Source: a virus. From it: 63,686 bases of DNA. A program made the position numbers and the translations under genes. Positions 2,752 to 63,686 of the stretch are shown piece by piece. The stretch lies in the UHGV virus genome UHGV-0312038. The stretch is one strand, 5' to 3'. A model generated the notes under the pieces. The model did not search any database, was not told the DNA's origin, and saw only the letters and a list, made by a program, of their open reading frames with translations. Positions within the stretch are counted from its first letter, which is position 1; the number at the start of each line of letters is the position of its first letter.

Positions 2752-3732
2752 ATGTCAGGATTCGGCAAAGTACCCACTAATCCCTATCAGGAAAGGGCCG
2801 AAGCATTCAGAAAACAGAATGAGCCGGGTGGAACCAATCCTCCGACCCAGACGACAGACCAGCAGACCGCCCCCGCGCAGCCCGCGGGTGTCCAGCCTGC
2901 CCCTGTACAGCAGCCGGTTAATCCCCCGTCTGCCCCTGTACAGCAGCCTGCCCCTGTACAGCCTGTAGCTACTCAGCCTCAGAATGCCGGCACTTACTAT
3001 GACCCTGCTCTTATCCAGAATCTGGCATATGAGCGTGACCAGCTCAGACAGCAGCTTGCCGCTGACCAGCAGAAGATGTCAGACCTTCAGAAGTCTGCTG
3101 ATGAGCTTAACGACCTCAGACGCAGGGCCAGTATCAGGGCTGACATCCAGCAGCAGGCCATTGACAATCTGGAGTCTGTGAGCCCTGAGGATTACACGGC
3201 TATTGTTGAATCCGCTACCAATCTGGCCATGGCTCAGACAGAGCCGCTCAAGAAAGAGCTTGAACAGCAGAGGAAAGAGCTTGAGGAGCGTACCCGGTAT
3301 AATCAGCAGATGCTCGAGAATACCCGCAAGGACCTTCTCAACGCCCGTATCTTTGCCGCTCATCCCGACTTTGCCCAGATGGTCAACACTCCCGAGTACC
3401 GGAACTTTATGGCCCAGCGTGACGGTCTCAGCTCTGAAACCCGAGACGCCCGTGCCAGCCGGGAATACCTCAACGGCAATACTGACTACGTTATCGACCT
3501 CCTGAACCAATTCAAGCAGAGTCGTAACAATGCCGTAGGTGTTGCTACTGTACCCCCCGTGCAGGTGGCTCCCGGTGCCGCACCTGCGGCGGCGCAGACT
3601 ACTCCAACCCGCTACACCCTGCGGGAACTCAACAACCTGTTTCAAACGAGGCAGATTTCCGCTGAAGAGTACAGGAAACTTCTTCCTGAAGCCCGCAAGG
3701 CAGCTGTCGAAAGTCTGTCATCCATGTCTTAG
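2752..3732 (+). CDS. putative scaffolding protein
   Basis: 326 aa. Pro/Gln/Val-rich N-terminal linker (PVQQPAPVQ repeats) then a long coiled-coil-like region. Sits directly upstream of the major capsid gene. Confidence 0.5.
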   Translation: MSGFGKVPTNPYQERAEAFRKQNEPGGTNPPTQTTDQQTAPAQPAGVQPAPVQQPVNPPSAPVQQPAPVQPVATQPQNAGTYYDPALIQNLAYERDQLRQQLAADQQKMSDLQKSADELNDLRRRASIRADIQQQAIDNLESVSPEDYTAIVESATNLAMAQTEPLKKELEQQRKELEERTRYNQQMLENTRKDLLNARIFAAHPDFAQMVNTPEYRNFMAQRDGLSSETRDARASREYLNGNTDYVIDLLNQFKQSRNNAVGVATVPPVQVAPGAAPAAAQTTPTRYTLRELNNLFQTRQISAEEYRKLLPEARKAAVESLSSMS

Positions 3733-31869: not shown

Positions 31870-34800
31870 CTAAGCTATGCAGTAATCCTTCCCTATCTCA
31901 GCTTCACATGCGACGGGAAAATCCCCCAGCCAATCCGGTACACTGGACATACAGGACTCCATTACGGACTTCGTATGCTCTGCTTCGTCTTCCGGACAAA
32001 TGGCAAGGAATGAGTCGTGGATATTGGCGATAAGCCGTATCCCCTGTTCTGTCATACGACAAGCCTGCCATTGCAGCAAGGCAAAAGCAAGATACTGACA
32101 CAGATTTTCCGCAAGCGCCCCGCCGTATATCTTTGTCTTCAGCTCCGACTTCCCCTTCACTCTGGTATAATAATACTCCTCCCTGTTGTTCTTCTCAGAC
32201 ACCTCACAGGAAAGTTTGAAATACCTCAGAGTATAATTATTCGGTCCAATGATAGTAGGTACATCGTCCCTCCCGCATATAGGGGCTACGCTGTACTGGA
32301 AGATATTATCATTGGGGCCGCCGAACTCTCCGGAGTACCCAAGGTACATCGCCTTAATGACCGTCTGACACGTATCCCAGAAAGCCACGATGTTCGGATT
32401 ACTGGCACGGTAAACATTGTGAGCATGATGGGCCATCTCATAATGCTGGTCAATGTCACTGCTCAGACGCACACCCTGACGGAGCAAAGTATCCGCGTAC
32501 TTCCTCCAACTAACACCATAGCCGCAATTATGAACTACAAGTGCGCCATGTTTGGTTCGTATGGTAAACCTATGATTCGGCCCCGCATTCAAGAGATCGT
32601 ATACGAGCTCTGAGTTTTTCAACCTCGGCTTGCAGTTCACTGACACGCCGCCTATTGTAGTTATTCTGAGACTTTGTAACAAACCGGAGATTACCCACTT
32701 CGTAGTTGCCATTATTGTCGATACGGTCAAGGTCGAAGTCCGGATTATCCCAGCCATCCAGTGATACAAGGTAGGCAAGAAACGCTCTACGGTCAGCAAA
32801 CTTGCATTGGATTCCACGCCCCCCGTAGTCTTTATATCTTCTACAGTGGGGGTTGTTACAACGCTGCTCAACAGCGGCAATTCTATTGAGCAAGCGTCTC
32901 CTGTGCGCAGGTTCCGGGCAAACGTCCGCGTAAGAGGAGTATAACTTAACATAGCTTTGTGATGACTTCTTCTTGGCGCAGGTGTTACACCGTGTAGTCC
33001 GTCCATTGTGGAGGTTGCTGAACAAGACCCAGTATGGTTCTGCCCCACAGGAACACTGCACCAGAACCATTCTTTCAATACGTTTCGTACCATGTACTCG
33101 TAATCTTGCGGAACGAATGACAGTGAGCTCACCAATCTTTGCACCCGGCTCATAATCTGCATAACGTGGCCTGAAAAACTTGAGATGGCTGGGGTCCCTA
33201 ACGGAGCAATGCTGGCAGGCATCAGTCGGGATTCTCCGTAAAGAGTAGATGCTAATCCATCGTAAAGCTCCACACTTGGAGCATTCGCATAAGTATCGCC
33301 CCCGTCCCCTATCATCGAACGCCATATCTCTAATGATGCGGCCCCTGTACAGAGTGCCCGGCTCAAGTATGAGCGTGTCTGAACGCACTCGCTTGCCTGC
33401 TTCCATGAAGAACCGCTTAAGATCATATGGTCTGGGGTCATCCTTACTCCATCCACATCTATTGTGTTCTTCTCGCCATTGCATATAAGTCCTTGATGAG
33501 TTACCCATTGTACACCATCCCACAATTTATCATCTTTCGACACCATAACTATGGGCTTCCACCCATTATTTGTCAATACCTCCGTATCACCTGCAAGGCA
33601 GGAAAGAATACCAGTTTTGCCAACGTTCCTGTACGCTTTCAGTTTCTTGTCTCCGGACTTAGCGCCCTTATGAATCTTCTCACTCGGAATCTGGAAAATC
33701 TTTTCAGCAAGGTCAGCGTAAGGGTCAGCCCCTCTCCTGAACGCGTCAACCAGCTCAGTCTCGTTAGCGACATAAGCAAGAATGCGCGCTTCAATCTGGC
33801 TTGAGTCGCAGGCCACAAGAGACATCCCCTCCGGTGCCTGTACTGCTTTCCTCAAAGTAAGCTGACTCGGGTCACGCTTGCTCAGGTTCTGAAGATTGAG
33901 CTTGTCACTGCTCCCCTCGGAGTTGCCAGCCGTATAACGTGACGTGTGAGCCTTGAACGCATTGAGCATAACGGGCATCGCCCTGCCGCTTTTAGCCAGA
34001 GCATGGAACGTCTCAGCCCTTGACCTCTGGATACTGGAGTTGTTCTCCAGTCTCGTCCGGACAAGAAGAGCCACGCACTCATCAGCGTCAGAAGCCATGG
34101 CCACGAAATCCAAATCAGACTTAGCCAGAGCCGGAGTATAAACCGCGTAATCCTCTTCGCTAAGATTAGTCTTCCCCTCGGCTTCCAGCTTTTTCCGCTT
34201 CGTCTCTGACTTCGCCACGCTGTATTTCATCGGCGGCTTGCGCCCGAGAAGCTCAAGCATCTTAACGAAAGAGGCGGAAGAACGAATCGCCTTCAGGAAG
34301 TCCTCATCCGATTTGAACATGAACATCCTGTTAATATCATTACGCGCCTTAGTGACCTTATCTGAAAGCTCGTTCAGGTACGCGGTAAGCATATCATCAT
34401 CAAGCCTGAGTACAGGATTGCATGCCATCTTGGCAGTTATAGAACTGAAGAGCAGGGCATCAGCAGTCACGAAAGGAAGCATGGCTTTAAAGCTCAGGAA
34501 ACATTGCTCCGTATCATTGCGGCAGTACTGGATGAATGCTGTACGTTCGTCAGGCGTGAAATCGTCCGGCCACTTCCGGCCGTCTGAAATCACCGTACCT
34601 TCCACCTTCTCGCCACACTGGAAAAATTTTGCCATGGATTTCAGTGACTCATTCTGGATTCGTGATACCCCTGTCCACCGTTCCATGCACATGGTATCTA
34701 TAGCAATCCTCGGAACCACATGGTAAATCTCGGAAAGAATAAGGAAGTCAAACCCATTCCCATTGTGGGCAACAGTCACCACGTCCGGGGCATCGAGCTT

Positions 34801-35004
34801 AAGAGCAGCAAGCACGGCGGGGATATTATCGTGTTCCGCTACCCGTACCTTATCGTATGTCATCGTACTGGCATCCGTGACAATATAACTCATGAGCTGA
34901 GCGGAAAACCTGCTGTCCCTGATATATGATATGGGGCCGATTTTTGACAGTGTATAATTTTTACTGTCCCAGTACGTCTCAAAGTCCAGTACAACAATTC
35001 TCAC
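31870..35004 (-). CDS. family-A DNA polymerase with 3'-5' exonuclease domain, interrupted by an intein (precursor 1044 aa)
   Basis: Exo I motif VLDFETY. Motif A LVACDSSQIEARILAY. Motif B KAYRNVGKTGILS / CGYGVSWRKYA split by the intein. Motif C IANIHDS. Confidence 0.8.
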   Translation of the reverse strand: MRIVVLDFETYWDSKNYTLSKIGPISYIRDSRFSAQLMSYIVTDASTMTYDKVRVAEHDNIPAVLAALKLDAPDVVTVAHNGNGFDFLILSEIYHVVPRIAIDTMCMERWTGVSRIQNESLKSMAKFFQCGEKVEGTVISDGRKWPDDFTPDERTAFIQYCRNDTEQCFLSFKAMLPFVTADALLFSSITAKMACNPVLRLDDDMLTAYLNELSDKVTKARNDINRMFMFKSDEDFLKAIRSSASFVKMLELLGRKPPMKYSVAKSETKRKKLEAEGKTNLSEEDYAVYTPALAKSDLDFVAMASDADECVALLVRTRLENNSSIQRSRAETFHALAKSGRAMPVMLNAFKAHTSRYTAGNSEGSSDKLNLQNLSKRDPSQLTLRKAVQAPEGMSLVACDSSQIEARILAYVANETELVDAFRRGADPYADLAEKIFQIPSEKIHKGAKSGDKKLKAYRNVGKTGILSCLAGDTEVLTNNGWKPIVMVSKDDKLWDGVQWVTHQGLICNGEKNTIDVDGVRMTPDHMILSGSSWKQASECVQTRSYLSRALCTGAASLEIWRSMIGDGGDTYANAPSVELYDGLASTLYGESRLMPASIAPLGTPAISSFSGHVMQIMSRVQRLVSSLSFVPQDYEYMVRNVLKEWFWCSVPVGQNHTGSCSATSTMDGLHGVTPAPRRSHHKAMLSYTPLTRTFARNLRTGDACSIELPLLSSVVTTPTVEDIKTTGGVESNASLLTVERFLPTLYHWMAGIIRTSTLTVSTIMATTKWVISGLLQSLRITTIGGVSVNCKPRLKNSELVYDLLNAGPNHRFTIRTKHGALVVHNCGYGVSWRKYADTLLRQGVRLSSDIDQHYEMAHHAHNVYRASNPNIVAFWDTCQTVIKAMYLGYSGEFGGPNDNIFQYSVAPICGRDDVPTIIGPNNYTLRYFKLSCEVSEKNNREEYYYTRVKGKSELKTKIYGGALAENLCQYLAFALLQWQACRMTEQGIRLIANIHDSFLAICPEDEAEHTKSVMESCMSSVPDWLGDFPVACEAEIGKDYCIA
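32527..33600 (-). mobile_element. class-1 intein (358 codons) inserted in polymerase motif B
   Basis: N-terminal CLAGDTEVLT (block A), TPDH (block B). C-terminal VYDLL...ALVVHN followed by +1 Cys. The flanks rejoin into a canonical motif B. Confidence 0.65.
32570..33523 (-). CDS. HNH homing endonuclease encoded out of frame inside the intein
   Basis: 317 aa in a different frame from the polymerase. Several CxxC zinc knuckles and DRIDNNGNYEVGNLRFVTKSQNNYNRR (HNH_3-type signature). Confidence 0.7.
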   Translation of the reverse strand: MGWCTMGNSSRTYMQWREEHNRCGWSKDDPRPYDLKRFFMEAGKRVRSDTLILEPGTLYRGRIIRDMAFDDRGRGRYLCECSKCGALRWISIYSLRRIPTDACQHCSVRDPSHLKFFRPRYADYEPGAKIGELTVIRSARLRVHGTKRIERMVLVQCSCGAEPYWVLFSNLHNGRTTRCNTCAKKKSSQSYVKLYSSYADVCPEPAHRRRLLNRIAAVEQRCNNPHCRRYKDYGGRGIQCKFADRRAFLAYLVSLDGWDNPDFDLDRIDNNGNYEVGNLRFVTKSQNNYNRRRVSELQAEVEKLRARIRSLECGAES

Positions 35005-48056: not shown

Positions 48057-48117
48057 TGCTCTGGCTGACAATGGTCCTGATTTGCGGCCTGTGGTATATC
48101 TGTATTCTGGAGATTAT

Positions 48118-50193
48118 ATGAATTTCAAATTTCAGGTTATTAAGCGTGATGGCAGGCTTGATGATTTCAGGCCCGAGAAGATAATTGGCGCTGTTTACTC
48201 CGCCGAGCGGGCGATGAACCGCGTGGATGACCACTCTGCGGAGTATGCTACTGAGGTCTGCAACAGGGTTGGCAGGTACGCGGAAGGACAGGAAACGCTG
48301 TCTGTTGAGGACATTCAGACCTGTATACTGGACTATCTGAAGGAACGTGACCCTGAACTTAGGGCTGTGTACGAGAAGTACAGGAATGAGAGGTCAGTAG
48401 TACGGGAACGCAAGGAAAAGATATACAGGCACTTCGGACGCATTCTTTCCTCTGACCCGTCCTGTATGGACATTATGAGAGAGAACGCTAATGTCAGGGG
48501 CGGAACGCCTATGGGCCGCATGCTTCGTATCGGCTCTGAGGCATCCAAATATTACTACCTCAGTAATCCGGATATTATCCCCCACGAGACCACGGAACTC
48601 CACAGGAAAGGGATTATCCACATCCATGACCTTGATTTCTACGGGACGTCCATTAACTGCCTTCAGATTCCTCTCTCTGATATTCTGAAGAGGGGCTTCT
48701 CTACGGGGCACGGCTCGGTGCGTCAGCCGAAAGGGATTCGTACAGCCGCGGCGCTGGCGTGTATTGTGCTTCAGTCCAACCAGAATGACATGTTCGGCGG
48801 GCAGAGTATACCGGACTTTGAGTACGCGCTGGCGCCTTATGTGAAGATGACGTTCGACAGGTACTACGCAGAGTATAACAATGACTTCAACAAAGCGGTT
48901 GAAATGACATGGCGTGAGACCTATCAGGCTATGGAGGCGCTGATTCATAACCTCAACACTATGGCCTCACGCGCAGGGGCACAGGTTCCGTTCTCCTCTA
49001 TCAACTATGGTACAGGTACGACTTTTGAGCAGAGGATGGTTATCTCGTGCATCCTGCATGCTACAGACGCGGGTCTTGGCCATGGTGAGACGCCTATCTT
49101 CCCTGTACAGGTCTTCAAGGTTAAGGCGGGGGTTAACTATAATCATGGAGACCCTAACCGTGACCTGTTTGAGCTGTCCGTTAAAGTATCGGCTAAACGG
49201 CTGTTCCCGAACTGGGAATTTCTGGACGCTCCTTTCAATCTTCAGTATTACCGTCCGGGTCGTATTGAGACGGAGGTGGCTACCATGGGGTGCCGCACCC
49301 GTGTTATGGCTGACAGGTTTGGTAAGGACATAACCCCCGGACGGGGGAACCTGTCGTTTACGAGCATCAATCTGCCCCGCATAGCGCTCATGACCAAAGG
49401 CAAAGGCAAAGGAACGGATTGGTTCTTCTCCAAGCTTGATAATATTACTGGCACAGTAATTGAACAGCTCGTGTCGCGGTATAAGATTCAGGCGTCACTC
49501 AGGGTGAGGAACCTCCCTTTCCTCATGGGTCAGGGGTTGTATGAAGACAGCCGTGACCTTGGCCCTGACGATACCGTGGAGAAGGCCGTAAGGCATGGTA
49601 CGCTGGGTATTGGCTTCGTTGGCCTTGCTGAGGCGCTTGTCGCTCTCACGGGGCATCATCATGGAGAGACCGATGAAGCGGAACAGCTCGGGCTTGATAT
49701 TGTCAGACACCTGCGTCTGAGGGCTGATTTGGCGTGTGAGAAGTACAACCTGAACTTCTCTCTGATTGGCTCTCCCGCGGAGAGTACAGCCGGAGCGTTC
49801 CTCAGGGCGGACAGGAGTGAGTACGGGGTAATCCCCGGCGTGACGGATAAGGAATACTACACAAACAGCCATCACATTCCTGTGAATTTCCACATCTCTG
49901 CATACAGGAAGATTAAGCTCGAGGCTCCTTTCCATGAGCTTGAGAACGGCGGGCATATCACTTACGTTGAGCTTGACGGCGATACGGCGAAGAATCCGGA
50001 GGCTGTTATGAGCGTGGTAAAGTGTATGCACGACTCCGGTATAGGTTACGGAGCTGTTAATCACCCTGTAGACCGTGATCCTGTATGCGGATATACAGGA
50101 GTGATTGGCGACACCTGCCCCTTGTGCGGACGTCATGACGGCGAGGCTGTAAGTGAGGAGAAGCTCCGCCAGATTAAGAAGAATATCCTTTAG
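48118..50193 (+). CDS. nrdD: anaerobic ribonucleoside-triphosphate reductase (class III)
   Basis: N-terminal ATP cone (VIKRDGRLDDFRPEKI). C-terminal glycyl-radical motif (DPVCGYTGV) and CPLCG zinc site. Start taken at the internal ATG with GGAGAT ribosome-binding site. Confidence 0.85.
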   Translation: MNFKFQVIKRDGRLDDFRPEKIIGAVYSAERAMNRVDDHSAEYATEVCNRVGRYAEGQETLSVEDIQTCILDYLKERDPELRAVYEKYRNERSVVRERKEKIYRHFGRILSSDPSCMDIMRENANVRGGTPMGRMLRIGSEASKYYYLSNPDIIPHETTELHRKGIIHIHDLDFYGTSINCLQIPLSDILKRGFSTGHGSVRQPKGIRTAAALACIVLQSNQNDMFGGQSIPDFEYALAPYVKMTFDRYYAEYNNDFNKAVEMTWRETYQAMEALIHNLNTMASRAGAQVPFSSINYGTGTTFEQRMVISCILHATDAGLGHGETPIFPVQVFKVKAGVNYNHGDPNRDLFELSVKVSAKRLFPNWEFLDAPFNLQYYRPGRIETEVATMGCRTRVMADRFGKDITPGRGNLSFTSINLPRIALMTKGKGKGTDWFFSKLDNITGTVIEQLVSRYKIQASLRVRNLPFLMGQGLYEDSRDLGPDDTVEKAVRHGTLGIGFVGLAEALVALTGHHHGETDEAEQLGLDIVRHLRLRADLACEKYNLNFSLIGSPAESTAGAFLRADRSEYGVIPGVTDKEYYTNSHHIPVNFHISAYRKIKLEAPFHELENGGHITYVELDGDTAKNPEAVMSVVKCMHDSGIGYGAVNHPVDRDPVCGYTGVIGDTCPLCGRHDGEAVSEEKLRQIKKNIL

Positions 50194-50341
50194 GAGGTTA
50201 CTATGGAAGAGACCAGAGATTCAGGCATGATTGGTGACGGCATCCATTTCGAGCGTATCAGGCGTGTGACGGGGTATCTAACCGGAGACCTCAGCACGTG
50301 GAATGACGCCAAGCGCGCGGAGGAGAGAGATAGGGTGCGGC

Positions 50342-50989
50342 ATGGGGTTGAAGGAGACGGGCGTGAAGGTAGAGACAGATAAGATAGCCCGTCATCTTGC
50401 TGGCAGGGGGGAGCTCTGCGGGTATTCCCTGCGGGGCTACATCCCCTGCTACGTGAATGATGGCAATCATAAGCGGGTCATTTACTACGGCACGACAAGC
50501 ATTGCTGACGTCACTCCCATAGACCCGGAGAAAGGCATACAGATTGGGGCCGGGTTTGATCTTGGTGCGTACAGGGCCATTGAGCTTAAGAGGCTTGGTG
50601 TCCCTGAAGACCTTCTGCGGAAGCTGTCTCGTTATACAGCGCATGTGGGCGGGGATGCTATGTGCTGGCTCAGGAACAGGCCTTTCTCGGTTACTCCCGA
50701 GCAGGCGTTTCTGTTAACCCGTATCATGGTTGAGGAGTACTGCTGTACAGTTCTTGCCCCGAGGTGGAATGACTTGCAGGATTATAAGACGTTCACCCGC
50801 ATGAGCTGGCAGGAGCAGGCTGTGATATTCGATGTTGCCCATGAGTTTGGCGTTGACCATGTTCTTAGGGATATAGATTGGTACTGCGGCCTGCTCCGCA
50901 GTAAGGACTACACCGCTATATTTGGAGAGCTGGGGGGATGTAAATATGCCGCTTCCGGAGAACATGAAGCACCCGCTGAGGGTTCTTAA
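50342..50989 (+). CDS. lysozyme-like (GH24 / pesticin-type fold) protein, putative endolysin
   Basis: The IQIGAGFDLG...TPEQAFLLTRIMVEEY...SWQEQAVIFDVAHEFG pattern parallels T4 lysozyme (TIGIGH...EAEKLFNQDV...ALINMVFQMG). Start uncertain (ATG 50342 or GTG 50363). A 59-aa ORF with a strong ribosome-binding site at 50203 overlaps. Confidence 0.35.
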   Translation: MGLKETGVKVETDKIARHLAGRGELCGYSLRGYIPCYVNDGNHKRVIYYGTTSIADVTPIDPEKGIQIGAGFDLGAYRAIELKRLGVPEDLLRKLSRYTAHVGGDAMCWLRNRPFSVTPEQAFLLTRIMVEEYCCTVLAPRWNDLQDYKTFTRMSWQEQAVIFDVAHEFGVDHVLRDIDWYCGLLRSKDYTAIFGELGGCKYAASGEHEAPAEGS

Positions 50990-54751: not shown

Positions 54752-55801
54752 ATGCCTAGAAACACTAAACAGCCTATTCAGTTCTACAGGGGCACGACAG
54801 CCCAGCATTCAGGTTATATGGGGCCTGCGGGTGAGTGCACTGTTGATACAACGAAAAACACACTCATTGTGCATGATGGGGTGAAGGCCGGTGGGTATCC
54901 TCTTGTGAAGGAGGACCACCCTGTTACTGGCGATGGATACGTGCTTGCTAATGGGAGCAGGAGCACGACTATTGGCAGTACGGCTCTTGCCCTGTCTTTG
55001 GATACAGATGCGCTCAAAAACCTGTTTGCAGACCCTTCTGGTACTGACGTAGTATCAGGAAATCTGAAACTTTCAGATGCTGTGGACAGTGAGCTTGACG
55101 CCGCTACTGGCGGTACGGCGGCTACGCCCAAAGCGGTTAAGACTGCTGTTGATGGAGCGGTTAAGAAGACATATGTTGTCAAAGGTGACACCTACATTAA
55201 AGTAGATGGCAAGGTTTCCACGACTCTTGATGACGCTGATGGTCTTGACCTGACGCTTGATACAGCCGCTCTGAAAAGTGCCCTTGCTGACCCCACGGCT
55301 ACTAATGTTGTATCTGGCAACAATATGCTTTCTGACGCTGTGGACAGTGAGCTTGATGCCGCTACTGGTGGTACGGCGGCTACGCCTAAAGCGGTCAAGG
55401 CCGCTTATGACCTTGCCGCCAGCAAGGCCAGTGATGACCTTGTCGTGCACATCCACAATGATGAGACTATTGAGGACGTGAAGACGTTCCTTCAGGGCCC
55501 TTATGGTACCTCAGCGGATTTGACAACTTCGGAGATTGACCTTTCCAAAGGCGTTGTTTTCAGCAAGACTGTCTCTGCTGATACGGTGTTTACTTTCATC
55601 AACGCTCCTTCCGGGCGTGCGGCTACGTTCAACCTCATTATTACCAATGGCGGGTCTGCTACGATTACGTGGCCGGCTTCGGTGAAATGGACAGATGCCG
55701 CCGCACCTACGCTTACTGCTTCCGGTGTGGACGTTCTGACCTTTATGACACCGAATGGTACTACATGGTATGGTACCCTTGCTATTGTTAACGCCGGTTA
55801 G
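54752..55801 (+). CDS. tail fibre protein (conserved N-terminal anchor plus duplicated roughly 95-aa module with ATPKAVK)
   Basis: N-terminal IQFYRGTTAQHSGYMGPAGECTVDT...HDGVKAGG is the common phage fibre N-terminal motif. Two near-identical internal segments. Confidence 0.6.
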   Translation: MPRNTKQPIQFYRGTTAQHSGYMGPAGECTVDTTKNTLIVHDGVKAGGYPLVKEDHPVTGDGYVLANGSRSTTIGSTALALSLDTDALKNLFADPSGTDVVSGNLKLSDAVDSELDAATGGTAATPKAVKTAVDGAVKKTYVVKGDTYIKVDGKVSTTLDDADGLDLTLDTAALKSALADPTATNVVSGNNMLSDAVDSELDAATGGTAATPKAVKAAYDLAASKASDDLVVHIHNDETIEDVKTFLQGPYGTSADLTTSEIDLSKGVVFSKTVSADTVFTFINAPSGRAATFNLIITNGGSATITWPASVKWTDAAAPTLTASGVDVLTFMTPNGTTWYGTLAIVNAG

Positions 55802-55856: not shown

Positions 55857-57302
55857 ATGATTATTCAGCGTATGCTTCTGGGAAGAGGCGTCAGTACGGC
55901 GGGGATGGAGTCGTGGGACTTGTGTTATACGATAGCTAAGGATGCTTCCTCTAAATCTATATATATTCCTATATGGACGAGTCATTACGTAAATACGGAC
56001 AAGGTTATTATAGACTGGGGTGATGGCTCTACGTCTGTTGTCAAAGGGGCATATAGTGGCGATGACCTGCATGATTTGAATCCTGAGTTCGTTCATACAT
56101 ATGCTTCCGCGGGTTCGTACAGGGTGAAGATTTACGCTCTCCCTGCTACGTGGTCTCGTACGGAAGTAGGTCAGAGCGTCAGTCCTACCTATGGACATAC
56201 TACTAATCTGACTACGATATATAATGCTATGCCGGCTATCAGGGGTGCATATGTCACGTACAGTAATTCTGATGCTACCGGTAAGCGTATGGACAATCTG
56301 TTCTATGGAAGTTCGGCGTTGACTTCCATACCTTCAGATTTGTTTAGTAACAATACTGACGCTGAGACATTCAACTCAACTTTTCATGCTTGCAGTTCTC
56401 TCAGCCTTACGAATGACCTGCTTCTTTTCTCTGGGTGCAGTGCGGCCAAAGAGTTCAGATATACTTTTTGTGGTGTGAAAGGCGGCGTGATAAGCACGGA
56501 CTTTTTTGCAGATTGTGTTAATGCCACAAGGTTTGACTGTTGTTTTAGTGGTTTTAGTGCTAGCCAGAGCCCTGTATGGTTCCCGGATGCGGCACCTTCT
56601 AGCGATGGCCTTATGGAGGGTCTTTTCCGGAACACTTCCGCAGAGTCGCTTATGGGGACGTTTGCTTTTTCTTCTGTACCCAATATTCTGGGACTTTTTG
56701 ATGGGTGTTCCAAACTGAAGAATATCAACTCCTGTTTTTATTTTGCCGCTATTGGGGAGTTTTACGCATTCCAGAAACCATATGATGGGCAGCCTGTTAA
56801 GTATAATTGGTACAATCTGTTCGATGACTGCGTGAATCTCATTGATATAACGGGACTTTTCTTATTCGCAATGGTTCCTTCTTGCACATTTGTACTTCCG
56901 GATGAGATTGGCAGGGAAGACAAGTGGCTTTACAAGGCAATGGCATATCCTGTTCTGCGGTTCGCCAACAGTCCGAATATCAACTATGCTGACAATGTGA
57001 GCGGGCTTAATCTGACCGGAGAGACCACGCCGGGACGTGGTACGTTCGATGTCATCTGGCTCAGTACCGGACCCGCTATGTTCGAGCAGAATGCGAATCA
57101 CCCGCTTCAGGGGGAAAATATGCAGGCTGTACCCCCCGGCATTGCTATTCATCTGGCTGGGTCTCCTGTGGAAACACTGTCTGGTAAAAACAAGGCTTTC
57201 ATTGTGGTTCCCTCTGGTTCCAGTATGGAGACTCATTACAAAAATGCTACGATTTCTGCTATGCTGAGTCAGGTAAAAACTATTGAGATTGTGAATGGGT
57301 AA
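55857..57302 (+). CDS. BspA-type leucine-rich-repeat protein with N-terminal DWGDG...VHTY domain (fibre-associated)
   Basis: F..C..L-type repeats (FHACSSLSL, FSGCSAAKE, FADCVNATR...). Start chosen at the ATG 8 nt after the GAGGA ribosome-binding site. Confidence 0.55.
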   Translation: MIIQRMLLGRGVSTAGMESWDLCYTIAKDASSKSIYIPIWTSHYVNTDKVIIDWGDGSTSVVKGAYSGDDLHDLNPEFVHTYASAGSYRVKIYALPATWSRTEVGQSVSPTYGHTTNLTTIYNAMPAIRGAYVTYSNSDATGKRMDNLFYGSSALTSIPSDLFSNNTDAETFNSTFHACSSLSLTNDLLLFSGCSAAKEFRYTFCGVKGGVISTDFFADCVNATRFDCCFSGFSASQSPVWFPDAAPSSDGLMEGLFRNTSAESLMGTFAFSSVPNILGLFDGCSKLKNINSCFYFAAIGEFYAFQKPYDGQPVKYNWYNLFDDCVNLIDITGLFLFAMVPSCTFVLPDEIGREDKWLYKAMAYPVLRFANSPNINYADNVSGLNLTGETTPGRGTFDVIWLSTGPAMFEQNANHPLQGENMQAVPPGIAIHLAGSPVETLSGKNKAFIVVPSGSSMETHYKNATISAMLSQVKTIEIVNG

Positions 57303-57308
57303 CAGACT

Positions 57309-57860
57309 ATGCGTAATACTATCAAGCCTATACAACTGTACCGCGGCACAACGCAGCAGCATAGCGATTATGCTGGGCCTGTTGGGGAGATTACCGTTGA
57401 TACAGAGAAATATATTGTTGTAGTACAGAATGGTGTTACAGGAGGAGTGCCGCTGGCAAGAGAGTCGGATGTGACTGCGGAAGCACAAGCTCGTGAGGCC
57501 GCTGATACTGCTCTTCAGAAGAGCGTTACTGATGAGGTCTCTGCCAGAGTGGCTGCTGATAACGCTCTTCAGAAGAAGGTTACTGACGAGGCTTCCGCCC
57601 GAATGGCTGCTGATACTACTCTTCAGCACAATCTCACCAATGAGGCTTCTGCCAGAGATGCCGCTGATATTACTCTTCAGAACAATCTCACCAATGAGAT
57701 TCACGTCAGAGAGTCCGCTGATACTGCCCTTCAGAAAAGTATCACCGATGAGGCTTCTGCCAGAGAGACCGCTGATAACGCTTTTCAGAAGCAGATTGAT
57801 GACGCATATGCGGCCATTAGCGCGGTATATATAGAAGCAGGAGGTACACTCGATGGATGA
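57309..57860 (+). CDS. fibre-like protein: same N-terminal anchor motif plus 8 approximately 18-19-aa coiled-coil repeats (EASARxAADxxLQxxxTD)
   Basis: MRNTIKPIQLYRGTTQQHSDYAGPVGEITVDT. 183 aa. Confidence 0.5.
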   Translation: MRNTIKPIQLYRGTTQQHSDYAGPVGEITVDTEKYIVVVQNGVTGGVPLARESDVTAEAQAREAADTALQKSVTDEVSARVAADNALQKKVTDEASARMAADTTLQHNLTNEASARDAADITLQNNLTNEIHVRESADTALQKSITDEASARETADNAFQKQIDDAYAAISAVYIEAGGTLDG

Positions 57861-58328
57861 CCATACTCTGCAACAGGTTATTGACTTAGCTGTTAAAACT
57901 GCTGTACTTAAGGCGAAAAAGGGAGCAATTCTGGAATGCCGTCCGATTGGCTCATATTTCTTAACTGAAACTGAGGATGACCCTAATATACTTTTCGGGG
58001 GGGGTGGCAGAAGATGACTGGCCGTTATGTCTTACAGTGTTCTGACGATAGCCATAAGGTCGGTACTACGGTAGAAGCGGGACTACCAAATATCACTGGT
58101 AAGGCTACTTTTCTACTAACTGATGGAATAGACCAAACGAGCTATCCAGACCTTGGTTGCTTTTACTGGGATAATTATAAGTACACCATGACAATGGACT
58201 CCACAAATACAGGCCCTGCGAAGCGAGACCTCGCTTTCAGCGCCTCCCGTTCCAACTCCATATACGGAAACAGTGATACCGTTCAGCCGTCCGCACGTAT
58301 TGTAAATGTATGGAAGAGGGTTTCATAA
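57853..58328 (+). pseudogene. tail-collar-domain gene split by a frameshift at a G8 tract (57997-58004)
   Basis: ORF 57853..58017 (…IGSYFLTETEDDPNILFGGGGRR*) and ORF 58014..58328. Adding one G fuses them into a protein paralogous to 58328..58822 (…VGSIYTSTKPTDPHELFGGTW…). Confidence 0.5.
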
Positions 58329-58822
58329 TGAACCTAGTAGAATACACAACCAAGATGATTAAATTAATCAAGCTCTTAAGCTGGCCAGTTGGGAGCATAT
58401 ACACCTCTACCAAACCTACTGACCCGCATGAACTCTTCGGCGGCACGTGGGAACCCATACAGGATACTTTCCTGTGGTGCGCCGGGCCAAAGCATGCGGC
58501 GGGGACGACTGGCGGCGAAGAGACGCATACGCTGACGGTGGAGGAGTCCCCAGAGCATACACATGATATTTCTTCTACAACTATAACTGGTTCATTCCGT
58601 GTGTGGTGGTCAACGGTAAATAGCACTTCCGGCTGTTTTTGGGGAGATAGTGTAACACATAATCCATCTAAAAACGGTGTTGTAGATAATAGTACTAATT
58701 ATTATGACCTAGTGAATTTCGAAAATACTCACCTTCATAGTATTGGCAACACCGGCGGAAATCAGCCTCATAACAACATGCCGCCTTACAGGTCGGTGTA
58801 CGCTTGGGAGAGAGTAAAATAG
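58328..58822 (+). CDS. tail collar domain protein (short fibre-like)
   Basis: Collar-domain pattern GSIYTS...DPHELFGGTW, EETHTLTVEESPEHTHD, GGNQPHNNMPPY. Start overlaps the previous stop (TAATG). Confidence 0.6.
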   Translation: MNLVEYTTKMIKLIKLLSWPVGSIYTSTKPTDPHELFGGTWEPIQDTFLWCAGPKHAAGTTGGEETHTLTVEESPEHTHDISSTTITGSFRVWWSTVNSTSGCFWGDSVTHNPSKNGVVDNSTNYYDLVNFENTHLHSIGNTGGNQPHNNMPPYRSVYAWERVK

Positions 58823-58842
58823 GAGGACTATAATGGAAGATT

Positions 58843-59232
58843 GGAAGCAGAGAGTGGTCGATGAATACAAACAACTGCATGGGCGGTACGAATGACTGTC
58901 GGTTATGATAGCCAAATATGAAGCTGGCACGCTCCCGTTCACACTGAACTGTCCCATATGTCTCCTGAGAATGCAGGCTGATACCATGCGGAAGTATCTT
59001 GACATCCTTGAGATACGAGGCAAAATTGAGAAAATTAATCTGGTTGATTGGATTGTGCCACAGTGGAATACAGAGGATGATACCGGGTGGCAGTACAGAT
59101 ACGGACAAAATGACTGTTGACTGGGGGGATGGCATTTCCACTATGCTTATTGGCTCCGGTCTCAACCCTCTGTTTGTCCATACGTACAATGTTCCCTTCA
59201 CTGACAACTATACTCTAATATCCGAGGACTAG
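58843..59232 (+). pseudogene. decayed N-terminal fragment of a DWGDG-family gene (frameshifted pieces, no LRR body)
   Basis: Frame A ...IVPQWNTEDD... and frame B ...TDKMTVDWGDGISTM...VHTY together resemble the N-terminus of the 55857 gene. Confidence 0.35.
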
Positions 59233-62525: not shown

Positions 62526-63686
62526 ATGGCAGATGAAACTGTTTCCAGTACAGACAGCAATGGTATAGACTGGCTCAGGGAGATTGAGGATATTCCCTCG
62601 AACGTCTCTGACAGGCTGGGTAAAGAAGTTCTCCGCAGATGGAACGGCGCAGTCCTGTGGCAGAGTACCGAGCGTGTCAACGGCAAAGGGCTCAGGGATG
62701 TGCTCCGTGAATGCTGGGAACAGCAGAACGGAGTTTTGTCCTGTTCAGACCAGCAGATAGCCGATGCCCTCGGGGTTAACGCCATAGTTAACCTTACTGC
62801 GCTTAAGACCGGTATAGCGAATGCCTATCTTAGCGACGCGCTTATCAGCAGTACATTAACTCTTCCGTGGGTTATCATGGCCACGCCGAGGCCGAGCATT
62901 TCTCCGGAGTCACGCGAGATGCTTCTTACCGTTCTGAAGCAGGGGTTCTTTGAGAACCGCTTTCAGGACGGTACGCAGATGGTTGATTTCATCCGCCGTG
63001 GGAAACAGCTTCTTCTGCGTCATGAGAAGGAAGAAGCGGATAAAGCGGCTAATGAAATGATGTCCCTGCTGGAAGACCAGTGTGTCGAAGGCGGGTTTAA
63101 CAGAGCGCTGTCTGACTTCCTACATTATTTTACGGTATATCCTTATTCGATTTTTACCGGCCCGTATATTACAAGAAGCCCCCGTCTGACGTGGGGCAGG
63201 AACAAACCCAGAGTACAGACGGAAGTACTCCCTGTATTCCGTTCTATATCTCCATTTGATTTCGCCTATTCTCCTGACAGTCCGGATACCCAGCGGGGAA
63301 CCTGTGTGTTTACCCGCACGCTCTGGACACGCAAGGAGCTTCTTGATGCGGGCAAGCTCAGCTCCTACATATCTGAGAATGTTCTGGATGTACTGAAGAA
63401 AGCAGATACAAATGATGAGTTCAATCTGAACTGGCTGACCAGAGAGCCTAATTCGGAAAAGAGAGACCTTGCCCTGTGGGCATCCAACGTTGCCCCCATT
63501 GAGGTACTGACTCATTACGGTATCATGTCCGGACGGGAACTGGCTGAATACGGGTTCCACAGTCTTGACCGCAGTGAGTTCTACAACTGCGAGATTTCCA
63601 TGGCCGGGTACAAGGTATTGCAGGTCAAGGTTAACTCCGACCCGCACATGCAGACCCGTCCTATTTACACGTCCAGTTTCTACCGT
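62526..63686 (+). CDS. 5'-partial CDS running off the window; putative portal protein N-terminal part
   Basis: ATG right after the TerL stop. 386 codons with no stop before the window end. Its frame matches the frame-1 ORF at the window start. Confidence 0.45.
   Translation, partial: MADETVSSTDSNGIDWLREIEDIPSNVSDRLGKEVLRRWNGAVLWQSTERVNGKGLRDVLRECWEQQNGVLSCSDQQIADALGVNAIVNLTALKTGIANAYLSDALISSTLTLPWVIMATPRPSISPESREMLLTVLKQGFFENRFQDGTQMVDFIRRGKQLLLRHEKEEADKAANEMMSLLEDQCVEGGFNRALSDFLHYFTVYPYSIFTGPYITRSPRLTWGRNKPRVQTEVLPVFRSISPFDFAYSPDSPDTQRGTCVFTRTLWTRKELLDAGKLSSYISENVLDVLKKADTNDEFNLNWLTREPNSEKRDLALWASNVAPIEVLTHYGIMSGRELAEYGFHSLDRSEFYNCEISMAGYKVLQVKVNSDPHMQTRPIYTSSFYR

Follow-up and report, generated by a model that had tools for sequence, protein, structure and literature searches.

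The virus genome UHGV-0312038, a 63,686-nucleotide (nt) stretch of DNA that we refer to in its entirety as the window, carries a run of eight G's (G8) inside a small gene of its tail fiber module, here called gene A. Sequence comparison with relatives indicates that this run is very probably a slipped-strand contingency locus, through which expression of a putative fiber-tip protein would be phase variable, and that the window holds the OFF allele. Relatives carry the same tract at lengths from G8 to G15, near-identical genomes differ by no other indel, and the out-of-frame alleles are otherwise intact.

An earlier note on this DNA had described the G8 run as splitting two open reading frames (ORFs) that a single inserted G would fuse in frame, and rereading the sequence and its translation confirmed the positions, both ORFs, and the fusion. 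The N-terminal part of gene A, with a predicted helix and the first conserved strand motif (PIGSYF..DDPN..FGG), ends soon after the tract, while the C-terminal part lies in the -1 frame relative to it; the ATG of the latter and the stop codon of the former overlap as ATGA (Table 1). One added G joins them into a protein of 158 amino acids (aa) reading ...ILFGGGWQKMTGRY... (the G9 version, also read as ...DDPNILFGGGWQKMTGRYVLQCSDD...). The run follows codon 48 of this 158-codon gene, where a gain or loss of one G shifts the frame, and the in-frame state in relatives is G9, which codes for the Gly-Gly-Gly of an FGGGW motif. The fused product is paralogous to that of the next gene downstream, here gene B, with which it can be aligned along its full length (BLASTP E=4e-8, 26% identity across the junction), also as the note had claimed.

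Gene A appears to be a separately initiated gene, since a Shine-Dalgarno-like GGAGGT is spaced for its ATG at 57853. The stop codon of the preceding fiber shaft gene overlaps this start (ATGGATGA). A +1 frameshift leading from the shaft gene into gene A at GGA TGA was considered and rejected, given the spacing of the GGAGGT and the separate 158-aa ORF of nearly all relatives. A search for promoter and terminator signals found nothing notable.

The G8 run is the sole G or C run of at least 7 in 63,686 bases, against approximately 6.6 expected from base composition. As a lone run it is unremarkable, with 0.77 G runs of at least 8 expected in 63.7 kb if bases were independent and identically distributed, but its placement at the exact frame junction between two halves of one domain is not chance. 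A genome-wide test for ORFs that would be merged by a one-base indel at homopolymers of at least 5 flagged many ordinary gene junctions; it was not discriminating, and we do not use it as evidence.

We sampled the homologous site in relatives through IMG/VR loci, exact-protein look-ups, a scan of metagenomes, and a DNA pattern that lies upstream of the tract and is blind to its state, which together yielded dozens of contigs. Among 26 unique alleles, nine are G8, eight G9, two G10 (in two unrelated lineages), one G11, and one G15, and the remaining five have interrupted tracts that stay in frame (GGGGGTGGG, GGGGGGAGG, GGGGGAGGA, GGAGGAGAG, and GAGGGGGGG). Beyond these 26, we found a G12 allele, a G9 in an orthologue of 51% amino-acid identity (L013), and an out-of-frame G8 in an orthologue of 47% identity (L042). 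The G8 alleles come from at least six studies, with sources that include SRR5883627, ERR4561517, SRR21618129, ERR40867xx, ERR38578xx, SRR347746xx, ERR14141122, and ENA assemblies, and 54-aa N-terminal fragments identical or nearly identical to that of the window have been called on more than 20 contigs from other samples.

The tract changes length between genomes that are otherwise almost the same. With the tract removed, flank divergence is 0.2 to 0.7% among L100 (G9), L110 and L112 (both G8), and L012 (G10), and 1% between L103 (G8) and L108 (G15). In pairwise alignments of 1.2 to 3.8 kb between near-identical genomes (99.6 to 99.9%), the tract is the sole indel: L110 (G8) and L089 (G10) are 99.6% identical over 2,166 nt with one 2-nt gap, which falls in the tract, and neither L110 nor L112 has any indel relative to L100 (G9) except there. 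A neighbor-joining tree of the 26 unique alleles requires no fewer than 14 changes of tract state and no fewer than 8 ON/OFF switches. In-frame and out-of-frame alleles are mixed across this tree, as in recurrent (homoplasic) switching, and the allele nearest to that of the window, L117, is G9.

Despite this instability in length, the homopolymer has been kept. GGG accounts for 22% of the glycine codons in the window, so that G9 would be expected for a Gly-Gly-Gly tripeptide at 0.22 cubed, or approximately 1%, and none of the nine other such tripeptides in the window is coded G9. At 63 paralogue or distant loci, the equivalent FGG(T)W is coded TTY GGC/GGT/GGA GGC/GGT ACN TGG, and the longest G run is 2. 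The pure-G tract is present even in the gene A orthologues at 51% (G9) and 47% (G8, out of frame) identity. Its retention in orthologues and its absence from the 63 paralogue loci show that the homopolymer is conserved specifically in the gene A clade. We conclude that the tract appears to be selected as DNA and to resist synonymous interruption, but not absolutely, given the five interrupted lineages.

The protein downstream of the tract has been kept as well. In all out-of-frame alleles, the C-terminal part is open to the native stop codon, with no second lesion, and the ratio of nonsynonymous to synonymous polymorphism (pN/pS) is 0.14 to 0.21 among G8 alleles that differ at a synonymous level (pS) of 0.10 to 0.14. 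These two properties together are incompatible with a decaying pseudogene. The earlier note had left the choice between phase variation and a homopolymer sequencing error to be settled; the tract lengths in relatives, the tract-only differences, the switches on the tree, the conservation of the tract, and the intact OFF alleles all favor the former.

A second tract is found in gene B of some relatives, which has its own polyG (G8 or G9) near the C terminus, in the context ...TGSTGGG[K/Q]P..IMPPY.... This tract keeps the frame in L095 but breaks it in L098, L003, L007, and L009/L010. Over 3.8 kb, L095 and L098 are 99.9% identical, and their only indel is a single G in the gene B tract. On L016, a contig of 149 kb, two collar-like genes lie in tandem, and both have an N-terminal polyG run. 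In the window, gene B has no polyG: its FGGTW is coded TTC GGC GGC ACG TGG, and its C-terminal TGGN is coded ACC GGC GGA AAT.

Fused gene A aligns over 100% of its length to approximately 990 database homologues, nearly all of them intact and 152 to 169 aa long, and in the displayed alignment of 24 full-length homologues, almost all read F-G-G-G-W at the tract. Against the Pfam family Gp10_C (PF21939; baseplate protein gp10 C-terminal domain-like), the fused protein scores 17.8 bits (E=0.007, residues 31 to 157), below the gathering threshold of 27 bits. We therefore treat gene A as a divergent relative of Gp10_C, not as a scored member, tied to the family member gene B by the BLASTP match described above. 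The earlier note had used the label "tail-collar"; the Pfam family matched is Gp10_C and not Collar. Gene A matches PHROG 6921, "tail fiber protein" (E=1e-7), and PHROG 6465, "tail protein" (E=5e-6), and both paralogues match PHROG tail-fiber or tail-protein families. Sequence and profile searches of the PDB gave weak matches only, to the T5 L-shaped tail fiber 8hqz_d (E=0.018) and to 7z47_I (E=0.2 to 0.6). An AlphaFold2 model of the fused protein built from a 26-sequence alignment was too poor for a fold search (predicted local distance difference test [pLDDT] score of 51.7; predicted template modeling [pTM] score of 0.32).

Gene A adjoins the shaft gene and other fiber and BspA-like genes in the fiber module, and one relative has shaft and gene A fused into a single polypeptide (P0039, 266 aa), which speaks for gene A being the distal domain of that fiber. 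Within the fused protein, a hypervariable segment with almost no conservation lies between the conserved blocks AGLPNITG and ASRSNxIYGxSDTVQP and is probably the receptor-contact region. On these grounds, the gene A product would be a receptor-binding fiber tip. A diversity-generating retroelement (DGR) was rejected as the origin of the hypervariable segment; the window contains no template-like repeat matching the variable region, although no search was aimed at reverse transcriptases or invertases.

Two relatives have stop codons of another kind within gene A. In L007 (IMGVR_UViG_3300045988_168185), a TGA at position 3460 replaces the conserved Trp of ..VNVWKRVS, and the gene A product (P0034, 153 aa) thereby loses 5 residues, which is a truncation that the phage tolerates or else a point error. 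In L008 (IMGVR_UViG_3300045988_168574; also L087 and L096), in-frame TAG codons stand at 3157 and 3433, where other gene A orthologues have CAG (Gln); with the stop given as an asterisk, the sites read GGGW*KL and SDTV*PP, and the tract of L008 is one of the interrupted ones (GGGGGAGGA). When 11 kb of L008 is translated with TAG as Gln, the total length of ORFs of at least 100 aa rises from 6,771 to 8,957 aa, which suggests TAG-to-Gln recoding of its late genes. The collar-like genes of L016 also have in-frame TAGs.

Under the favored reading, the polymerase would slip on the G run as phage DNA is replicated, adding or removing G's. G9, G12, and G15 would keep the frame and give a full protein with three to five glycines in the FGGGW turn, while with G8, G10, and G11 the frame would be lost after residue ~51 and the protein cut short inside its conserved domain. 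A phage population would then consist of virions with and without the gene A tip, beside a paralogous tip that is always made (gene B in this genome), and such mixed virions would hedge against changing host surface receptors. The window would represent the OFF (G8) allele. The switch would be reversible within one population and would affect adsorption or host range.

Several observations weigh against this interpretation. Out-of-frame alleles dominate the window's own clade, in which AAG ATG follows the tract, and a stable G8 that is somehow expressed would also fit. In the P0013 cluster (90% identity), 8 of 12 distinct sequences are split, appearing as 105-aa C-terminal fragments, as are ~23 of 27 contigs. 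Runs that belong to one and the same study are all G8 (ERR4086780-85; ERR38578xx), so switching is too slow to scramble the consensus. The G8 sample was enriched by G8-specific fragment look-ups; the tract-blind scans found 3 of 12 pure tracts out of frame. Our comparison covered consensus assemblies. Finally, the function of the protein is taken from family annotation (PHROG, with Gp10_C below its cutoff for gene A) and gene context, and the AlphaFold model is poor. "OFF" may fall short of fully silent in the window's lineage.

This raises the question as to whether G8 is an OFF state at all. The full protein could instead be made from G8 through a -1 shift of the ribosome on G GGG GGU or through slippage on the G run during transcription, or the 54-aa and 104-aa parts could be made as separate, translationally coupled polypeptides that assemble, with the tract tuning amounts or isoforms. 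Recoding of this kind and hypermutability are not mutually exclusive. A -1 slip on TTC GGG GGG GGT gives exactly FGGGWQKM; split expression would be helped by the ATGA overlap and by a G-rich GGGGGGGGTGG that lies 6 to 9 nt upstream of ATG 58014, like a Shine-Dalgarno site. Moreover, G8 predominates in exactly the clade that has this ATG, and G8 alleles at pS 0.10 to 0.14 show pN/pS of approximately 0.15 to 0.2 in both halves. However, the ATG association is a single clade, hence one phylogenetic event, and is inseparable from shared ancestry; G8 also occurs where CTG replaces the ATG and no restart codon is available (P0142, P0145, and L118-L121). Most orthologues have an in-frame G9, so that the out-of-frame two-ORF architecture is not conserved, and the G10 and G11 alleles would have to be shifted in another way, with a sign that differs from that of G8. 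Split expression would also place the break inside a conserved domain (the Gp10_C match at residues 31 to 157). Nor is there a stimulatory structure, as the folding energy of 58005-58090 (-21.4 kcal/mol) is no different from that of shuffled sequences (z = -0.14); RNA around and after the tract showed nothing stable or unusual (z = -0.14 and +1.93), and there was no Rfam match. We consider recoding or split expression unlikely. The same doubtful standing applies to its fuller form, in which G8 is predominant and selectively maintained in the window's lineage, the polyG doubles as an internal ribosome-binding site with ATGA coupling or permits low-level -1 slippage, and the tract becomes a three-state isoform switch (fused, split or truncated, and no tip) combined with the gene B tract of relatives.

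A plain inactivating mutation, in which gene A is dispensable and the window holds a young pseudogene whose tract has no switching role, is less probable still. A paralogous tip gene lies directly downstream and out-of-frame alleles are common, as this account would predict. Yet no out-of-frame allele has a second lesion, constraint persists among G8 alleles (pN/pS 0.14 to 0.21), the homopolymer has been kept over deep divergence despite four synonymous Gly codons, the two frame states are mixed on the tree and out-of-frame alleles have in-frame sisters, and in-frame expansions to G12 and G15 exist.

That the true genome is G9, with gene A intact and the window miscalled, is the least likely account. 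In its favor, homopolymers of at least 8 are notorious for indel errors, the gene becomes a perfect family member once a G is added, and the sole other assembly of exactly this genome (Logan SRR5883627) may share the same reads. Against it, that second, independent assembler also arrives at G8 within 20 kb of 100% identity, long ORFs of up to 1189 aa are intact elsewhere in the genome, G8 recurs in more than 20 contigs from at least six studies and consistently in five runs of one study, and G11, G15, and a high-coverage G10 (cov 643 in the contig name) are not explicable as miscalls of one base. Consensus sequences mirror the read majority, which also counts against an error, and as a cause of the family-wide pattern an artefact is effectively excluded.

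The closest parallel to a phase-variable tip in this genome is found in phages of Campylobacter. To our knowledge, the Campylobacter Fletchervirus phages are the only experimentally studied phage group known to phase-vary receptor-binding proteins via polyG. In those of Campylobacter jejuni, expression of receptor-binding proteins is described as phase variable through hypermutable polyG tracts (Sørensen et al. 2021, Cell Rep 35:109214, as described in PMC10579305, PMC12823448, and PMC10877375). As far as those descriptions go, the likeness is threefold: a G tract lies inside a tail-fiber or receptor-binding coding sequence and its variation in length toggles the frame; more than one gene per module bears a tract (here gene A and the gene B of relatives, or the two tandem genes of L016); and the proposed role, virion diversity against variable host receptors, is the same. 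Here, in contrast, the phage is an unrelated, uncultured type of ~64 kb from human gut or sewage metagenomes, whose TerL is ~30% identical to podophage terminases; the 158-aa Gp10_C-like tip is coded apart from its shaft, with the tract coding a conserved Gly3 turn; and the locus is known from comparison of natural populations alone. The device itself is shared with those phages, and what differs is the phage lineage, the protein family, and the evidence from natural populations. Literature searches turned up no report of a polyG switch tract in uncultured gut phages, which is not proof of absence.

The locus also resembles simple sequence repeat contingency loci in Campylobacter, Haemophilus, and Neisseria and in phages T2 and T4, where slipped-strand mispairing at a mononucleotide run leads to reversible frameshifts of one base in either direction in a conditionally useful gene, as would also be the case here. 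Tracts of 7 to 11 G are typical in Campylobacter (PMC9311878). Contingency loci in T2, T4, and other phages are mostly polyA (Gomez, Barrick and Waters 2025 preprint, PMC12633550); those of T2 and T4 are mostly polyA runs of at least 6 in many gene classes, with read variant frequencies of ~1e-4 to 1e-3 (PMC12633550). The authors of that preprint argue that such loci are a general feature of phages. The tract described here differs in being a single long G run, of a kind otherwise avoided in the genome, in a putative host-recognition gene, and in showing majority-allele differences between natural populations. Two overlapping tail-module ORFs joined by a -1 shift at a slippery run also recall the tail assembly chaperone frameshift of lambda G/GT. 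There, the out-of-frame architecture is present in essentially all relatives and the product ratio is fixed, whereas here a single in-frame ORF is the norm, the shift is +1 or -1 depending on the allele, and there is no stimulatory structure. Finally, the DGR of Bordetella phage BPP-1 Mtd and the Gin/Cin invertible tail-fiber segments of Mu and P1 would share with this locus the purpose of a rapid, heritable diversification of the distal fiber, and the shaft gene here starts with Mtd_N. Unlike those systems, the variation in gene A would be one of presence or absence by frameshift and not of sequence replacement.

The fiber module runs in the order fiber 1, a PKD/BspA-like protein, the shaft gene, gene A, gene B, small ORFs, a second PKD/BspA-like protein, and the terminase genes (Table 1). 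The shaft gene contains a 54-nt (18-aa) tandem unit in 5.5 copies at 57495-57791 (Tandem Repeats Finder), with the consensus ..EASAR.AAD.ALQK.VTD... Homologous shaft proteins are 93, 129, 147, 172, 183, and 190-191 aa long, and since most of these differences (183 to 147, 129, and 93 aa) are whole multiples of 18 aa, fiber length seems to change with the number of repeat copies. A number of relatives' contigs stop close to the shaft repeat.

Table 1. Features of the fiber module in the window, and tract states in relatives (L numbers, contigs of relatives)
Feature	Position or contigs	Strand	Description
Fiber 1	54752..55801		Mtd_N and fiber repeats
Fiber shaft gene	57309..57860	+	183 aa; N-terminal Mtd_N (Pfam PF18454, E=6e-8), then 18-aa coiled-coil-like repeats
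Shine-Dalgarno-like GGAGGT	57840..57845	+	7 nt upstream of gene A ATG 57853; read from the sequence
Gene A, N-terminal part (G8 state)	57853..58017	+	54-aa ORF, ending ILFGGGGRR*
PolyG tract, G8	57997-58004	+	Context ...AAT ATA CTT TTC GGGGGGGG TGG CAG AAG ATG ACT GGC...
Gene A, C-terminal part	58014..58328	+	104 aa from ATG 58014, starting MTGRYVLQ
Hypervariable segment of gene A	58101..58226	+	Residues ~84-125 of the fused protein, from the alignment
Gene B, tandem paralogue	58328..58822	+	164 aa; Gp10_C (PF21939), 65.1 bits (family member)
Gene B polyG in relatives	L003 3841, L007 3827, L009 3825, L095 1535, L098 2661
Gene A tract G8	Window, L001, L101-L107, L110-L116, L118-L121
Gene A tract G9	L002, L003, L005, L007, L011, L013, L094, L095, L098, L100, L117, L122
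Gene A tract G10	L012/L089/L099 and the unrelated L091
Gene A tract G11	L109
Gene A tract G12	L015
Gene A tract G15	L108 (= P0131)		In frame; protein FGGGGGW

Downstream of gene B, the ORFs in 58834..59232 are short and look broken. One, MEDWKQRVVDEYKQLHGRYE, is ended by a TGA where L095 has CGA and a continuous ORF (..GRYERLSAMIAKY..), and a further fragment carries a PKD-like DWGDG motif and a G6 run at 59123 that is G7 in L102 and G6 in L108. These ORFs may be remnants or further variable small genes.

The Logan assembly of run SRR5883627 contains a contig (L001, SRR5883627_5001) that is 100% identical to the window over 20.3 kb, G8 included, and that continues from window position 63686 into position 1, which identifies the window as a complete 63,686-bp phage genome that is circular or (terminally) permuted. 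A portal-like gene that follows TerL spans the window ends. A megablast search of 57300-58830 against GenBank phages gave no match, and this, together with a TerL only ~30% identical to terminases of cultured podophages, indicates an uncultured type. One G9 allele, like that of L011, lies on a 37.6-kb contig of coverage 5 (L122, URBN01000020.1) from a metagenome-assembled genome labeled uncultured Desulfovibrio sp. UMGS847; it may be a misbinned phage contig or a hint at a Desulfovibrionaceae host. No other species-representative bacterial genome matched, and this one is too slight a basis for naming a host.

Two further genes of the window are unusual. The anaerobic ribonucleotide reductase gene NrdD (48082..50193) is split: a 703-aa ORF ends at a TAG and is followed, after a GGAGG ribosome-binding site, by a 59-aa ORF in the same frame (~50203..50382) with a glycyl-radical motif (RIRRVTGYL), and both pieces match PF13597 (Logan gene calls). 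On the minus strand, a 1044-aa DNA polymerase ORF (31870..35004) matches polymerase families at both ends and the endonuclease family phrog_93 at residues ~488-556, which suggests an intein or a homing-endonuclease insertion.

Pipelines that "repair" such frameshifts as errors, or discard them as pseudogenes, would hide real biology in phage fiber genes. The gene A locus is well sampled, and its switching dynamics are measurable from existing read archives. Alleles from G8 to G15 are already segregating in public metagenomes, and tracts occur in more than one tandem tip gene. Taken together, these observations suggest that homopolymer switching serves phages more widely in host-range bet-hedging, beside DGRs and invertible segments.

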